Source: Azospirillum fermentarium (GTDB taxonomy: Bacteria > Pseudomonadota > Alphaproteobacteria > Azospirillales > Azospirillaceae). Taken from it: a stretch of DNA of 24,000 nt. Position 1 is the first letter of the stretch, and each line of letters opens with the position of its first letter. The DNA lies in NCBI RefSeq assembly GCF_025961205.1, contig NZ_JAOQNH010000002.1, positions 1,024,208 through 1,048,207 on the forward strand. The letters run 5' to 3'. Below are positions 2,527 to 8,490 of this stretch, in pieces. The translations under genes and the position numbers were made by a program. The notes under the pieces are model-generated. The model did no database searches. It was not told the origin of the DNA and saw nothing but the letters and a program-made list of their open reading frames with translations.

Positions 2527-3597
2527 TCAAGAACACAACACCCTGTCCACATCCACCCCCACCTCCCCCCCGATCCGGTGCAGCGCCTGCACGGTACCGG
2601 GGTCGAGCGCGATCCCCTGCGCGGCCACCTTTTCCCGGTGATGCCGTTCGGGCACACCGGGGATCAGCACGCCGGCGCTGCCGGGGGCGGCGGGGGTGCC
2701 GGTGACGTAATCCAGCACGGCGTCGGCCAGCCCCTGCCAACCATCCGCATCGGTGGCGGCGCGGGCGGGGTCGATGACGAAGGCCAGGGCGTTGTTGACC
2801 ACCCGCCCGGGGCGCAGATTTTCCGGGACTGCGGGCAGAGCGGCCCCCAGCGCGCCGGCCAGGATCTCGCAGGCCAGCGCCAGCCCGTATCCCTTGTACC
2901 CGCCGAACGGCAGGATGGCGCCGGTAGGGTCGCGGAACATGGTGCCGGGGTCGCGGGTGGGCTGGCCGTGCTCGTCGATCAGCAGCCCCTCGGCCACCGG
3001 CTCGCCACGGGCGGCGGCGACGCGGCATTTGTTGGCGGCGATGGCGCTGGTGGCGAAGTCCAGCAGAAAGGCGCCATGGCGCGGGGTGGCCGGCACCGCG
3101 ATGCAGATGGGGTTGGTCGCCAGCCGCGGGCGGGCACCGCCGTGAGGAGCGGCCAGCGGGCGGCTGACCACGTTGACGAAGAACACCCCCACCAGCCCGG
3201 CGGCGATGCACTGCTCCCCAAACGCCCCCACCCGCCCGATGTGGTGGGCGTTGCGCAGGGTGAGGATGCAGGCCCCGCCGGCCTGCGCGCGGGCGATGGC
3301 AAGCTCCGTCGCCTCCCGCCCGATCACCTGCCCATAGCCGACATCGCCGTCCACCACCAGAAACGGCGCTTCGTCGCGCAGGATGCGGGCGTGACGGTTG
3401 GGCTGGAGATGGCCCAGCTCCAGGCTTCTCATGTAAACGGGGATCTGGCACACGCCGTGGCTGGCGTGGCCGGTGGCGTCGGCGTCCACCAGATTGGCGG
3501 CGACGATGGCCGCCTCCTCCGGGGTGCTGCCGCTGCGCACGAGAATGGCGTCCACCAGCGCGGTCAGGCGTTGGGGATCGAAACGTCCGGGGAGCAT
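2527..3597 (-). CDS. Ldh_2-family (malate/L-lactate/sulfolactate dehydrogenase type 2) NAD(P)-dependent oxidoreductase
   Basis: The translation shows Ldh_2 hallmarks (…ATGHASHGV…, …NAHHIGRVGAFGE…, LATNPICIAVP, PFGGYKGYGLAL). I chose the start at ATG 3597 (MLPGRFDPQRL…), which has AAGGA about 8 nt upstream and lies 4 nt after the stop of the upstream gene. The ORF-track start at 3642 would overlap the HAD gene. Confidence 0.8.
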   Translation of the reverse strand: MLPGRFDPQRLTALVDAILVRSGSTPEEAAIVAANLVDADATGHASHGVCQIPVYMRSLELGHLQPNRHARILRDEAPFLVVDGDVGYGQVIGREATELAIARAQAGGACILTLRNAHHIGRVGAFGEQCIAAGLVGVFFVNVVSRPLAAPHGGARPRLATNPICIAVPATPRHGAFLLDFATSAIAANKCRVAAARGEPVAEGLLIDEHGQPTRDPGTMFRDPTGAILPFGGYKGYGLALACEILAGALGAALPAVPENLRPGRVVNNALAFVIDPARAATDADGWQGLADAVLDYVTGTPAAPGSAGVLIPGVPERHHREKVAAQGIALDPGTVQALHRIGGEVGVDVDRVLCS

Positions 3598-3601
3598 GGG
3601 A

Positions 3602-4396
3602 TTATCCTTTGGCCTGCAGGATCGCGTCGGCCACCTCGACAAAGCCGGCGCCGCCGGGGCCGCGGGTCACCCAGGTGGGTGGCACCGGCAGGTGGGGGAG
3701 GAAATCGACGACGGTGCTGACGCCGACGCTGTTGCCGAAGAAGGCGAACATGGGGGCGTCGTTGGTGGAATCGCCCACGTACAGAATCTCGTCCCCCCGC
3801 TCGTCGATGGGCAGGCCGTGGGCCTCGGCCATCACCCGCCGGGCCATGGTCAGCTTGTCGTAATCCCCGAACCAGCCCAGCACCCACAGGGAGTTCACGG
3901 TCACCCGCGCGCCGGCATCCCGGAACGCCGCCAGCAGCGCGTCGCGCACCCCCGCATCGGCGGGTGCGTCGTAGGCGAGGCTGGTCAGGCGGAACGGCTG
4001 GTCGGAGGCGACGCGGGCCACCGGCACCCGTTCGGCAATGGCGGCGGCCAGGGCGTCGAGCCGGGCCGCCACCGCCGCCCGCTCCGGGTCCGGGTGCCAG
4101 AAACGGCGGGTGACGGCGCCGCCGCCGGGGCTGTCGAAGTAAAACCCGCCGTTCTCGCCGATCACCCCGCCGATGGGCCACATGCGGGCCATCTGGTCGC
4201 ACCAGCCCGCCGGGGCGGCGGTGACCGGGATCACCGGCACCCCGCCGCGGCGCAGCCGTTCCAGGGCGGTGTATGTCTGCGCCGCCAGCGCACCATGGTG
4301 CGTCAGCGTGTCGTCCATGTCGGTCAGAACGAAGCGGACCCGCCGCAGCCGTTCCGCCGGCGCCCCGGACAGCGGGCGCATCCTCTCCCCCGCCAT
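3602..4396 (-). CDS. HAD-superfamily phosphatase (HAD-IIB-like)
   Basis: Motif I is DxDxT (FVLTDMDDTLT) and motif IV is YVGDSTNDAPMF. The start, ATG 4396 or GTG 4399, overlaps the TGA stop of the upstream ThrC-like gene (GTGATG). Confidence 0.75.
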   Translation of the reverse strand: MAGERMRPLSGAPAERLRRVRFVLTDMDDTLTHHGALAAQTYTALERLRRGGVPVIPVTAAPAGWCDQMARMWPIGGVIGENGGFYFDSPGGGAVTRRFWHPDPERAAVAARLDALAAAIAERVPVARVASDQPFRLTSLAYDAPADAGVRDALLAAFRDAGARVTVNSLWVLGWFGDYDKLTMARRVMAEAHGLPIDERGDEILYVGDSTNDAPMFAFFGNSVGVSTVVDFLPHLPVPPTWVTRGPGGAGFVEVADAILQAKG

Positions 4397-6639: not shown

Positions 6640-7469
6640 GGGCGGGGAGTCCCGGTGTCTTCCACGCTGTCGGCGAACAGCATGGTGTGGATGCGCTGGG
6701 CGGTATCCTGGAAACCGGGGCTGCCGACGGCGCCGTGGTCGTAGCCGCCGCAGTTGATTTCCGCCTTCACCTGCCCCGGATGGGGCGACAGCACCAGAAT
6801 GCGCGAGCCGACCACCATCGCCTCTTCGATGGAATGGGTGACGAACAGCATGGTGAAGCGCACGTCGTCCCACAGGGCCAGCAATTCCTCCTGCATCTTG
6901 CGGCGGGTCAGGGCGTCCAGCGCCGCGAACGGCTCGTCCATCAGCAGGATGTCCGGCTCCATCGCCATGGCGCGCGCGATGGCGACGCGCTGCTTCATGC
7001 CGCCCGACAGCATGTGCGGGTGGGCGTCGGCGAATTTGGACAGGTTGACCTTGGCGATGGCGGACAACGCCTTCTCCTCCGCCTCCCGCCGGGAGAGGTG
7101 CGCGGCGGTGAGCAGGGGGAACATCACGTTGTCCTTGACCGTCTTCCACGGCAGAAGCTGGTCGAATTCCTGAAACACCATCATCCGTTCCGGCCCCGGC
7201 CCGGCCACCGCGCGGCCGTTGAGGCGGATCGCCCCCTCCACCGGCTGGATGAAGCCGCCCACCGCCTTGAGCAGCGAGGACTTGCCGCAGCCGGACGGCC
7301 CGAGAAGCACGTAGCGTTCGCCCTGGAACACCTGAAAATCCACGCGGTAGGTGGCGGTCACCCGATGGCGGCGGGTCTCGTACTGCAGCGTCACCCCCGA
7401 CACGTCCAGCAACGGACGCTCGGACACGGTTTCCGTGTCGATGTTACCGGGCAGGCTGAGGGCGTTCAT
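6636..7469 (-). CDS. ABC transporter ATP-binding protein, NitT/TauT family, TauB-like
   Basis: Walker A is GPSGCGKSS, the ABC signature is LSGGMKQRVAIARA, and Walker B is ILLMDEPFAALD. The start lies 4 nt after the stop of the substrate-binding-protein gene. Confidence 0.9.
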   Translation of the reverse strand: MNALSLPGNIDTETVSERPLLDVSGVTLQYETRRHRVTATYRVDFQVFQGERYVLLGPSGCGKSSLLKAVGGFIQPVEGAIRLNGRAVAGPGPERMMVFQEFDQLLPWKTVKDNVMFPLLTAAHLSRREAEEKALSAIAKVNLSKFADAHPHMLSGGMKQRVAIARAMAMEPDILLMDEPFAALDALTRRKMQEELLALWDDVRFTMLFVTHSIEEAMVVGSRILVLSPHPGQVKAEINCGGYDHGAVGSPGFQDTAQRIHTMLFADSVEDTGTPRP

Positions 7470-7473
7470 GATC

Positions 7474-8490
7474 TCAGCTCCCGGTTTCGGTGTGGAGATC
7501 GGCGAAGAACAGATCCTTCCACGAGGCGGGCTTGGCCTTGATGGCGCCCACCTTGTGCATGAAATCGGCGTAGACCGCGATGCGGCTGGGGGCGGTGGTG
7601 AACTGAATGTCGGGGTCGTCGAGGATCTTCAGCAGGAACGCCTTGTCCAGGTCGCCCTTGTTCTGGGCCAGATAGATGTCGGCGGCGGCGGAATGGTCGG
7701 CGTTGATCAGCGCGTCCGCCTCCTTCAGCGCGTTCAGGAACGCGGCATAGGTCTTGGGGTTGCCGGTGCGGAACGCGTCCTTGGTCCAGATCAGGTTGAA
7801 GGTGTGCGGGCCGCCCAGCACGTCGTACGAGCTGAACACCTTGCGGATCTTAGGGTCCTGAAGCTGCTGGTACTGGAACGGCGGGCCGGAGATGTGGCCG
7901 GTGATCTCCGCCGCCCCCGACAAAAGCGCCGCCGTGGCGTCGGGGTGGGGCAGCGAGACGGTCAGCGTGTCGAGAGCGTCCGACTTTCCGTCACCGAATT
8001 CCTTTTCGGCGGCGATTTGCAGGGTGCGCGACTGGATCGACACCTTGACCGCCGGCACGGCGATCTTGTCCTTGGCGCTCAGATCCCTCAGCGTTTTGAC
8101 GCTGGGGTTGCTGGTGGTCAGGAACAGCGGCATGTTGTTCAGCGCCGCGATGGCCTTGACGTTGACGCTGCCGCGGGTGCGGTCCCAGATGGTCAGCAGC
8201 GGCCCTACCCCGCCGGACACCAGATCCACGCTGTCCGACAGCAGCGCGTCGTTCATCGCCGCCCCGCCCGACAGTTTCACCCAGTCCACCGCGATGTCCA
8301 CGCCCAGCGCCTTGCCGTGCTTTTCGATCAGCTGGTTCTGCCGCAGCACGTGCAGCGGCAGGTAACCCAGCCCGTATTGCTCGGCGATGCGGATCGTGCC
8401 CTCGGCCAGCACCGGGCCGGCCATGACGACGGCGGCCAGCCCCGCGAGCACGGCGGCAATCCGCCCCGGAAAACGCCGACGATGGCCCAT
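7474..8490 (-). CDS. Periplasmic substrate-binding protein, NMT1/TauA/SsuA-like, of the adjacent ABC importer
   Basis: A signal peptide is present (MGHRRRFPGRIAAVLAGLAAVVMAGPVLAEG), followed by the typical start of this family (TIRIAEQYGLGYLPLHV…). The start at ATG 8490 has GGGAGGG 6 nt upstream. Confidence 0.8.
   Translation of the reverse strand: MGHRRRFPGRIAAVLAGLAAVVMAGPVLAEGTIRIAEQYGLGYLPLHVLRQNQLIEKHGKALGVDIAVDWVKLSGGAAMNDALLSDSVDLVSGGVGPLLTIWDRTRGSVNVKAIAALNNMPLFLTTSNPSVKTLRDLSAKDKIAVPAVKVSIQSRTLQIAAEKEFGDGKSDALDTLTVSLPHPDATAALLSGAAEITGHISGPPFQYQQLQDPKIRKVFSSYDVLGGPHTFNLIWTKDAFRTGNPKTYAAFLNALKEADALINADHSAAADIYLAQNKGDLDKAFLLKILDDPDIQFTTAPSRIAVYADFMHKVGAIKAKPASWKDLFFADLHTETGS

Follow-up and report, generated by a model that had tools for sequence, protein, structure and literature searches.

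Gene content of the cluster

The stretch of DNA considered here (the window) is a 24,000-nucleotide (nt) segment of the Azospirillum fermentarium contig NZ_JAOQNH010000002.1. Of interest within it is a minus-strand run of six genes, all read in one direction from 8490 to 2527, in which an ABC importer is encoded together with a pyridoxal phosphate (PLP) enzyme that is annotated as 'threonine synthase' but is probably not one. The window is GC-rich (GC content 0.60-0.74) and its lists of open reading frames (ORFs) are therefore crowded; across the whole window, one coding frame was singled out by the GC content of third codon positions (GC3).

The first gene of the run (8490->7474), whose ATG is preceded by a GGGAGGG ribosome-binding site, encodes the substrate-binding protein (SBP) of a NitT/TauT-family ABC importer, a protein of 338 amino acids with a twin-arginine-like signal (MGHRRRF). 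It is followed by the genes for the ABC transporter ATPase (7469->6636; 277 amino acids; PF00005, 115 bits) and permease (6639->5725; 304 amino acids; PF00528), and then by that for a ThrC-like PLP enzyme of the NF006050/PRK08197 family (5637->4396; 413 amino acids; GTG start; PALP, 244 bits). The last two coding sequences specify a HAD-IIB phosphatase-like protein (4396->3602; 264 amino acids; TIGR01484) and a 2-hydroxyacid/2-oxoacid dehydrogenase of the Ldh_2 family (3597->2527; 356 amino acids; PF02615, 320 bits). Spacing is tight at most of the junctions: the SBP and ATPase genes are separated by 4 nt, the ATPase stop and permease start overlap in ATGA, the permease and ThrC-like genes lie 87 nt apart, the ThrC-like and HAD genes meet at TGATG with one base in common (an alternative GTG start lies at 4399), and a further 4-nt gap precedes the Ldh_2 gene. 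The six genes and five junctions had been listed in an earlier note made from the sequence alone, and all were reproduced by the GC3 phase and ORF analysis. As the gene order recurs in ten Azospirillum loci it cannot be attributed to chance. Together the six genes form an operon within a sulfur-scavenging island of Azospirillum.

Relationship of the ThrC-like protein to threonine synthases

The ThrC-like protein, which matches a protein recorded for A. fermentarium with 100% identity, passes the NF006050 model, which bears the name 'threonine synthase', with 685 bits against a cut-off of 303. Distant representatives of this family, with 37-64% identity, pass the same model, and its name rests on homology only. 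By contrast with this, the protein fails the thrC equivalog TIGR00260, scoring 160.4 bits against a cut-off of 167.1. Membership of the cysteate synthase clade is ruled out by a score of 58.7 bits against the TIGR03844 cut-off of 324.9, and the kinship with cysteate synthase that had been considered earlier is thereby not supported. Models of D-cysteine desulfhydrase and 1-aminocyclopropane-1-carboxylate (ACC) deaminase are not among the best 25 of 39 NCBIfam matches, the protein belonging to the ThrC branch. Its best matches in the PDB are all threonine synthases (approximately 35% identity, E ~1e-45), with no other type of solved relative.

The fold and the PLP lysine motif are held in common with class I threonine synthases (EC 4.2.3.1; PDB 1uim, 2d1f, 6cgq and 2zsj), and the N-terminal region derives from the zinc-ribbon extension known in archaeal-type ThrC. 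However, the loops that characterise class I enzymes are altered. In the solved enzymes and an actinobacterial thrC product these read ASTGNT, NSVNPxRLEGQKT and PVGNAGN, whereas throughout NF006050 they are replaced by P[TS][NA]GNAG, xTLKEPYRxEGKKT and YPTGGGxG, the corresponding segments of the A. fermentarium protein being PTNGNA, STLKEPYRIEGKKT and PTGGGTG. The STGNT, NSxNP and GNAGN cores of the class I loops have thus become TNGNA, STLKEP and GGGTG, in a protein that, unlike those enzymes, is encoded in an importer operon. This signature was compared across 15 members of NF006050 and is kept down to 37% identity. Within the compared motifs, only the PLP lysine and the equivalent of Arg160 are retained from the class I enzymes. 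Arg160 of the Thermus threonine synthase is a residue which we take to bind phosphate, a role reportedly described by Omi et al. in 2003.

The coexistence of the family with a canonical thrC could be checked in two genomes, and was found in both. The chromosome of Aeromonas caviae carries a class II thrC, the product of which is 66% identical to E. coli ThrC, in addition to a 53%-identical member of the family; in Sphingomonas parapaucimobilis YK209, a class II thrC follows cox/SURF1 genes, the usual place in alphaproteobacteria, and a 71%-identical family member is located on another replicon. No class II thrC was found on any Azospirillum chromid in PLSDB, a search outside which the main chromosome lies. 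The Azospirillum ThrC-like genes themselves are located on chromids, inside sulfur-scavenging islands, and the gene is duplicated in strain B510. Housekeeping threonine synthesis was accordingly rejected as the default reading, as the earlier note had anticipated: the TIGR00260 result, the loop motifs, the coexisting thrC genes, the chromid location and the duplication together make it very unlikely that this is a housekeeping thrC.

Conservation of the cluster within Azospirillum

Gene neighbourhoods were compared at ten Azospirillum loci. The series SBP-ATPase-permease-ThrC-like is present in all ten, and in nine an Ldh_2 gene lies directly downstream of the ThrC-like gene, mostly with a 4-nt overlap. 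A divergent 2-hydroxyacid dehydrogenase resembling phosphoglycerate dehydrogenase (PGDH) follows Ldh_2 at six loci, and at four a TauD-family gene and a second SBP gene are found just upstream. These four, A. brasilense, A. argentinense, TSH58 and B510, restrict the earlier observation that the system has no tauD, which holds for A. fermentarium, where no TauD-like gene was detected anywhere in the 24,000-nt window. The HAD gene occurs at two of the ten loci only, A. fermentarium and the first of the two B510 copies, and at differing positions, adjoining the TauD-family gene in the latter. The trio of ThrC-like, HAD and Ldh_2 genes, previously regarded as a set, is therefore not a conserved unit; what is conserved is the importer with the ThrC-like gene, generally accompanied by Ldh_2. 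The second B510 copy comprises the three importer genes and the ThrC-like gene alone, with LysE and GntR genes after the latter, and because these four genes stand by themselves it points to the substrate of the ThrC-like enzyme being the imported compound or a near derivative of it.

Identity of the importer and accessory proteins

The importer had been described as of TauABC type. It does belong to the NitT/TauT family, but this designation is too specific, since all three of its subunits fall far short of the equivalog cut-offs for Tau and Ssu. The SBP scores 69.8 bits with the SsuA family model TIGR01728 (E=2e-19; cut-off 163.5) and 22.3 bits with TauA (cut-off 304), has no match in a Pfam profile search, and finds a sole, marginal match in the PDB, to E. 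coli SsuA (2x26), with no close solved homologue; its orthologue in B510, 77% identical, bears PF13379 (NMT1_2). On these scores it is a very divergent member of the NitT/TauT family. For the ATPase, the best NCBIfam models are TauB (210.5 bits; cut-off 357) and NtrCD (206 bits), and the permease falls below the cut-offs of the SaoP, NtrB, TauC and SsuC models (79.8 bits against 342 in the case of TauC). The importer is paralogous to the Ssu importer encoded upstream (ATPases 37% identical, permeases 30%), which agrees with the earlier description of two NitT/TauT-family importers back to back.

The Ldh_2 protein passes NF007504, a model of YbiC type, with 362.2 bits against a cut-off of 336. 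In the PDB it matches 2g8y best (E=1e-72), the second-best match being ComC (2x06, E=2e-53).

The HAD protein is a member of HAD-IIB (TIGR01484, 61 bits against a cut-off of 41.8), and its translation contains the N-terminal DxDxT nucleophile motif within LTDMDDTLT; a PDB sequence search returned no close solved homologue. Orthologues with approximately 58-65% identity are widespread. In Pseudomonas (loci L105-L107, 1-7623), a 58%-identical HAD gene stands in the series NitT/TauT ABC - TonB/ExbBD - LLM monooxygenase - HAD - LysE, with a GntR gene in addition. A weak match to a YcsE-related riboflavin phosphatase model (18.8 bits) is also found, and the family may serve flavin-dependent enzymes of sulfur scavenging. 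Given its presence at two of ten Azospirillum loci and the occurrence of its orthologues in unrelated sulfur-scavenging clusters, the HAD protein is best regarded as a recurrent accessory of such islands and not as a partner of the ThrC-like enzyme.

Distribution and genomic contexts of the ThrC-like family

A search with the ThrC-like protein returned 7,263 cluster representatives at E<=1e-10, a number that includes other ThrC-like and PALP families. A genome scan identified 80 loci encoding proteins of 69-88% identity, in Bradyrhizobium, Pseudolabrys, sphingomonads, Inquilinus, Opitutaceae, a metagenome-assembled genome (MAG) of the Planctomycetaceae and others; among these, the combination of importer and Ldh_2 was seen only at the Azospirillum loci.

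The commonest neighbour of the ThrC-like gene is a PGDH-like 2-hydroxyacid dehydrogenase gene (2-Hacid_dh), often overlapping it, at eight loci in five phyla: Inquilinus, an alphaproteobacterial MAG, two Opitutaceae, the Planctomycetaceae MAG, Chlorohelix and two actinobacterial MAGs. It lies downstream of the ThrC-like gene at seven of these and upstream in Chlorohelix. This more widely conserved partner is absent from the window. Three non-homologous types of 2-hydroxyacid dehydrogenase adjoin ThrC-like genes, namely Ldh_2, the PGDH-like enzymes and an FAD/Fe-S enzyme in Natribaculum. A fourth type of dehydrogenase neighbour, an SDR oxidoreductase gene 42 nt before the ThrC-like gene, was observed in S. 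parapaucimobilis (locus L094, 5180-9676), where arsenic transporter and metallophosphoesterase genes follow on the opposite strand.

Several of these contexts resemble sulfoglycolysis clusters. In Inquilinus, where the ThrC-like protein is 81% identical, the order is GntR, low-molecular-weight (LMW) phosphatase-like, ThrC-like, PGDH-like, PfkB kinase and LacD/YihT-type aldolase, then FucI-like isomerase, GH31 glycosidase and a sugar ABC transporter; the aldolase scores 358 bits with the LacD-type model (cut-off 184). The families represented are those of sulfo-EMP (Embden-Meyerhof-Parnas) and hybrid sulfoglycolysis clusters (PMC9594981). As a separate observation, the LMW phosphatase gene directly upstream of the ThrC-like gene in Inquilinus is also ArsC-like. 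In Opitutaceae, the pair of ThrC-like and PGDH-like genes is flanked by genes resembling that of the sulfoquinovose isomerase SftI and by SSADH-like (sulfolactaldehyde-dehydrogenase-type) genes. In Natribaculum, a 40%-identical protein is encoded with a sugar ABC transporter, Gfo6, a DHDPS-family aldolase, an aldehyde dehydrogenase and the large FAD/Fe-S dehydrogenase. No sulfoglycolysis genes were detected in the A. fermentarium window.

The most extensive of these arrangements is a 14-gene co-directional run on a plasmid of Chlorohelix allophototropha (NZ_CP128401.1, 68414-84263). Its first part comprises genes for an SSADH-like protein, a nitrite/sulfite reductase, three enzymes of siroheme synthesis, a PFK-family kinase and an SftI-like isomerase; the remainder consists of sugar ABC genes interspersed with genes for a Gfo/Idh/MocA oxidoreductase and a sugar-phosphate isomerase, and then the PGDH-like and ThrC-like genes. 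A TauE/SafE sulfite exporter gene lies 4 kb beyond the run. This content suggests that a photosynthetic member of the Chloroflexota may, as a single organism, use a sulfo-sugar as a source of sulfur. Because the cluster implies that sulfite is made, and no known desulfonating enzyme is encoded there, the ThrC-like protein is the sole candidate for the cleavage of the C-S bond.

Sulfur metabolism is also evident at loci of other kinds. In Aliarcobacter cibarius the order is ssuADCB, amidohydrolase, ThrC-like, cysteine ABC transporter, sulfate SBP, cysteine synthase and Mec; in Aeromonas the ThrC-like gene opens an operon that also encodes an ABC importer for polar amino acids; and in one MAG (locus L097) a sulfatase gene overlaps the start of the ThrC-like gene. 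The connection with C3 sulfonates that had been proposed for the A. fermentarium cluster therefore gains from orthologues found with sulfoglycolysis-like, 2-hydroxyacid dehydrogenase, sulfite reductase, ssu and sulfatase genes, whereas substrate and direction are its inferred components.

A proposed sulfite-releasing pathway

These contexts lead to the tentative proposal, to which somewhat less than an even chance is given, that the ThrC-like enzyme desulfonates cysteate or a close analogue, and that the operon scavenges sulfur from sulfolactate or cysteate. The NitT/TauT-family importer would take up a small sulfonated acid, most likely 3-sulfolactate and/or L-cysteate. Ldh_2 would then oxidise (R)-sulfolactate to 3-sulfopyruvate, and in most other Azospirillum the divergent, D-specific PGDH-like enzyme would act likewise on (S)-sulfolactate. 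Conversion of sulfopyruvate to L-cysteate would fall to a general aminotransferase whose gene lies elsewhere, and from L-cysteate the ThrC-like PLP enzyme would remove the sulfonate by beta-elimination or beta-replacement, giving sulfite together with pyruvate and ammonium (or serine); the sulfite would enter cysteine synthesis. Overall, the route would mirror the phosphorylated serine pathway with sulfonates, the ThrC-like enzyme standing in for the terminal phosphatase. We infer the identity of the substrate, the type and direction of the reaction, the transaminase step and the regulation by sulfur from gene content of the kind described above.

The setting of the operon is in favour of such a role. 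It has ssuADCB upstream, SfnB-like, LLM-monooxygenase, NMT1-SBP and LysR genes beyond Ldh_2, and an SfnR-like gene beyond ssuA. L-cysteate fits as the substrate because importers of both the sulfonate and the amino-acid type, three types of 2-hydroxyacid dehydrogenase and sulfite-handling genes recur around the family. The two dehydrogenase partners would also fit the stereochemistry of sulfolactate, one for each enantiomer: Ldh_2/ComC enzymes act on (R)-sulfolactate, and D-specific 2-Hacid_dh enzymes would take (S)-sulfolactate. The latter corresponds in configuration to D-3-phosphoglycerate and is the form of sulfolactate that sulfoglycolysis yields.

A wider generalisation, considered doubtful on present evidence, is that NF006050 as a whole constitutes an unrecognised family of ThrC-derived desulfonating PLP enzymes which, with PGDH-like (S)-sulfolactate dehydrogenases (and Ldh_2 where the substrate is the R enantiomer), would make up a 'sulfo-serine pathway' running from sulfolactate through sulfopyruvate and cysteate to sulfite and pyruvate or serine. 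In the searchable full-text literature no ThrC-family enzyme was found described in sulfonate catabolism, sulfoglycolysis or sulfur starvation, save cysteate synthase and MetM, and the earlier statement that no pathway with this exact gene set had been described stands on the same basis.

A number of observations weigh against the proposed desulfonation. The Ldh_2 protein fails the L-sulfolactate dehydrogenase model NF040650 by a wide margin (197.6 bits; cut-off 500), and with the YbiC-type model passed and this one missed, its designation as a ComC-like sulfolactate dehydrogenase is not upheld. The SftI-like genes in the sulfoglycolysis-like clusters of relatives are all well under the model's cut-off of 700, including that for the Inquilinus FucI-like isomerase, for which SftI is the sole NCBIfam match (278 bits). 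An aminotransferase gene is missing from all of the clusters examined. The ThrC-like gene belongs to the syntenic core, with nothing in its surroundings that relates to sulfur, in Bradyrhizobium, where it follows pdhA-pdhB-pdhC-lpdA and precedes a Bug/TctC SBP gene, and likewise in sphingomonads, where it follows hrcA-grpE. A 'threonine synthase' of Bilophila wadsworthia (E5Y294), encoded next to a tricarboxylate transporter, had no L-cysteate sulfo-lyase activity (PMC11193023); since the Bradyrhizobium ThrC-like gene adjoins a Bug/TctC SBP gene, it is plausible that the Bilophila protein belongs to the same family.

The degree of conservation is a further difficulty. NF006050 proteins are 70-88% identical across orders, compared with approximately 54% for canonical class II ThrC (Sphingomonas/Sinorhizobium), which indicates either unusual constraint or repeated horizontal transfer. 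Conservation of this degree across orders would be in keeping with an anabolic enzyme of central metabolism, or else with recent transfer. The range over which this high identity is seen extends to Rhodospirillales, Hyphomicrobiales, Sphingomonadales, Opitutaceae and the Planctomycetaceae MAG.

Alternative roles

Two other functions have to be weighed, both of them unlikely. In the first, the ThrC-like protein would be anabolic, a beta/gamma-replacement synthase fixing inorganic or carrier-bound sulfur on O-phosphoserine or O-phosphohomoserine to yield cysteine, S-sulfocysteine, homocysteine or cysteate, with the PGDH-like enzyme supplying O-phosphoserine and the importer bringing in a small sulfur oxyanion. 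CysM in cysPUWAM, CysM and CysK2 of Mycobacterium, MetM of Streptomyces and archaeal cysteate synthase would be the precedents, MetM and cysteate synthase being ThrC homologues in such roles. A function of this type would accommodate the PGDH-like neighbour, the best NCBIfam match of which is to real PGDH (283 bits), and the retention of the arginine aligned to Thermus Arg160, with its presumed phosphate-binding role. It would also be in keeping with the assimilatory sulfite reductase and siroheme genes in Chlorohelix, the cysteine synthase, Mec and MoaD/ThiS genes in Aliarcobacter, and the cross-order conservation and core synteny in Bradyrhizobium and sphingomonads, as expected of a central biosynthetic enzyme. 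However, it leaves the sulfoglycolysis-like clusters without a desulfonating enzyme despite their sulfite reductase or sulfite exporter, and provides no role for Ldh_2 or for the amino-acid-type importers of Aeromonas and Aliarcobacter; the score with the cysteate synthase model (58.7 bits against 325) is likewise adverse.

MetM/MetO is reportedly, from the work of Hasebe et al. in 2024, the O-phosphohomoserine-dependent homocysteine synthase of Streptomyces. Two sources describe MetM as a ThrC homologue frequently mislabelled as threonine synthase (PMC12172450; GapMind 2026 preprint). The ThrC-like protein is similar in being a ThrC homologue that bears this label and, as proposed, is devoted to sulfur metabolism, but MetM acts together with a sulfur carrier whose gene, metO, lies alongside. 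Neither in the window nor at any other locus examined does a MetO/ThiS-type carrier gene adjoin the ThrC-like gene, the only MoaD/ThiS-family gene being that of Aliarcobacter, approximately 7 kb away and beyond an insertion sequence (IS) element. In view of the missing metO-like neighbour a MetM-like enzyme was set aside, MetM having been compared by description and not by sequence.

The second function, to which a similarly low probability is assigned, is catabolic, with a different imported amino acid as substrate and Ldh_2 handling the resulting 2-oxo acid or imine. Candidates would be L-homocysteate, from which the gamma-elimination of sulfite would be the chemistry nearest to that of threonine synthase, S-sulfocysteine, cysteine sulfinate, an O-sulfo- or O-phospho-amino acid, or a non-sulfur hydroxy-amino acid. 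The evidence from linkage to transporters applies equally here, a sulfatase is the operon partner at locus L097, and the Ldh_2 family includes imine reductases such as delta1-piperideine-2-carboxylate reductase (1wtj). The Bilophila homologue, its membership of the family being only plausible, was negative on L-cysteate (PMC11193023). Set against these points, the presence of SSADH-like and PGDH-like genes in sulfoglycolysis-like clusters is a specific pointer to C3 sulfonates, and neither homocysteate nor O-sulfo-amino acids have a known link to pathways of that kind.

Finally, it is highly improbable that the protein is a genuine, redundant threonine synthase whose place in a sulfur island is incidental or answers a regulatory need, such as the steering of homoserine phosphate towards threonine whenever the synthesis of methionine comes to a halt: the NF006050 score of 685 bits against 303, the PDB matches, the conserved PLP lysine and Arg160-equivalent, the housekeeping-like neighbourhoods in Bradyrhizobium and sphingomonads and the name given in every source would all suit it, but those names come from homology only, TIGR00260 is not reached, three loops invariant in class I differ family-wide, canonical thrC coexists in both genomes checked, and the gene is tightly, often translationally, coupled to importers and dehydrogenases in at least six phyla and embedded in sulfo-sugar, sulfite reductase, ssu and sulfatase clusters.

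Comparison with known systems

The closest counterpart to the proposed desulfonation of cysteate by the ThrC-like enzyme is the CuyA or bifurcated sulfolactate pathway, reportedly established by Denger et al. (2006, 2009) in Roseovarius nubinhibens and Ruegeria pomeroyi. In Roseovarius, sulfolactate is converted through sulfopyruvate and cysteate to pyruvate, ammonium and sulfite. The order of sulfolactate dehydrogenase, transaminase and a fold-type-II PLP enzyme that frees sulfite would be the same as that suggested here, and a TauE/SafE-type exporter is found near the ThrC-like gene in one relative. The differences are in the proteins: CuyA belongs to the D-cysteine desulfhydrase/ACC deaminase branch, whereas the present enzyme belongs to the ThrC branch (NF006050); the dehydrogenase partners are Ldh_2 and PGDH-like enzymes in place of SlcD; and uptake is by an ABC importer instead of a TRAP transporter. 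The CuyA of Bilophila acts on D-cysteate (PMC11193023).

In archaeal cysteate synthase (TIGR03844) a ThrC-derived PLP enzyme has cysteate as substrate or product, and its pathway partner ComC is an (R)-sulfolactate dehydrogenase of the Ldh_2 family. The enzyme is reported, by Graham et al. in 2009, from the Methanosarcinales. The direction envisaged for the ThrC-like protein would be the opposite, with sulfite released, in a scavenging or catabolic context and not in coenzyme M synthesis. By analogy, therefore, the suggested chemistry would be that of CuyA, and the evolutionary precedent for recruiting ThrC to cysteate would be cysteate synthase. The SlcC/ComC/SuyAB system of Chromohalobacter salexigens offers a parallel to the Ldh_2 and PGDH-like enzymes encoded beside the ThrC-like gene in most Azospirillum, in that two dehydrogenases, opposite in stereospecificity, both turn sulfolactate into sulfopyruvate; there, however, the pair racemises sulfolactate for SuyAB, which is lacking here, the PLP enzyme being proposed as the end step.

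As for architecture, E. coli tauABCD and ssuEADCB share with this operon a NitT/TauT-family ABC importer in the style of sulfur starvation, and cysPUWAM (with CysM) and tcyJ-dcyD-tcyLN likewise combine an importer with a fold-type-II PLP enzyme. Unlike the tau and ssu systems, the importer here misses the Tau and Ssu cut-offs, and desulfonation would fall to a PLP enzyme in place of TauD or SsuD.

Sulfoquinovose and its C3 products, sulfolactate and 2,3-dihydroxypropane-1-sulfonate (DHPS), rank among the most plentiful organosulfur compounds. According to current reviews, the terminal cleavage of the C-S bond is carried out only by SuyAB, Xsc, CuyA and glycyl-radical enzymes, and sulfoglycolysis and desulfonation are seldom inherited together. 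A ThrC-derived desulfonating enzyme, if real, would be a new terminal route in the sulfur cycle and would explain the complete mineralisation of sulfo-sugars by some single organisms; the 'sulfo-serine pathway' would complete sulfoquinovose mineralisation and the scavenging of sulfonate sulfur without SuyAB, CuyA or Xsc. It would also imply a widespread annotation error, affecting thousands of genomes including those of Bradyrhizobium, Sphingomonas and Azospirillum, the correction of which would carry over to the automatic prediction of amino-acid biosynthesis. In itself, the window looks like any ordinary sulfur island; its interest lies in having brought to light a probably misannotated enzyme family.

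Surroundings of the operon, the spacer and the tandem repeat

The complete ssuADCB operon that had been reported directly upstream, in the same orientation, is present on the minus strand. ssuA (12572->11586; 322 bits, cut-off 299), ssuD (11547->10366; 588 bits, cut-off 518) and ssuC (10343->9573; 362 bits, cut-off 347) pass their models, and ssuB (9539->8676) has SsuB as its best match at 340 bits, below the cut-off of 395. An AT-rich spacer of 185 nt (8491..8675) separates ssuB from the SBP gene and is the likely site of a promoter or regulatory region belonging to the cluster itself. When the spacer and cluster were scanned for promoters and terminators, no strong sigma-70 match to the consensus was seen, and only a weak hairpin at 8556-8544.

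Divergent from ssuA, a gene on the plus strand (13166..14272) encodes a sigma-54-dependent activator without a receiver domain, of SfnR-like type (PF00158, 229 bits, with HTH_8). Upstream of ssuA, the minus strand has matches to the sigma-54 -24/-12 pattern at 12981-12966 and 12633-12618 (TGGCATGGCGTGTGCA and TGGCACGGTGTGTGCT), in a window where the number of such matches is not above that expected by chance, so that only their position is suggestive. A further sigma-54-like match on the minus strand, at 16173-16188, lies within a stretch (15600-16600) of GC content ~0.60 with no convincing coding frame, in which a 190-amino-acid ORF has no Pfam match. This stretch is flanked by an MFS transporter gene (14344-15507) and a gene for an autotransporter of 951 amino acids (16681-19536).

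The permease and ThrC-like genes had been said to be separated by 87 nt filled with a tandem repeat. The repeat is genuine (22-nt unit, 3.9 copies, 89% matches; 5663..5747), but it begins within the 3' end of the permease gene and covers 62 of the 87 intergenic bases. It consists of the re-duplicated C-terminal codons of the permease (..TWGMVR*) with the stop codon, and every unit contains the palindrome GGTGCgataGCACC, of which there are three perfect copies against 0.31 expected. The corresponding junctions of A. brasilense, A. griseum and B510 have no such repeat; the 87-nt gap has no match in Rfam; and the fold of the repeat region (z-score -1.4) is no better than that of shuffled sequence. 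A riboswitch or attenuator in the gap was rejected on these grounds, and for the same reasons the repeat is probably a lineage-specific, neutral tandem duplication.

On the far side of the operon, the Ldh_2 gene is directly followed by a Trypsin_2 peptidase gene (2395->1016, within an interval of 1016-2526), with a GC content of ~0.60 and an AT-rich leader of 130 nt. It occupies the slot held by the divergent PGDH-like dehydrogenase gene at six other Azospirillum loci, and looks like a replacement or insertion. Beyond it, the 3' part of an acyl-CoA-dehydrogenase-fold gene of SfnB/DszC-like type (1..992, plus strand; SfnB model, 64 bits) opens the next sulfur-scavenging block, which in full, at a related locus (L081), comprises Acyl-CoA_dh, NMT1 SBP, Aldolase_II, 2-Hacid_dh_C, Bac_luciferase, SBP and LysR genes.

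At the other end of the window, the interval 19541-23993 contains an S33-like hydrolase gene and an IMP dehydrogenase gene that runs past the window end. A two-component system of LytS/LytTR type is encoded on the minus strand (21098-22810 and 20385-21101). The orthologous cluster of A. brasilense (locus L001) has a GMP synthase gene upstream.

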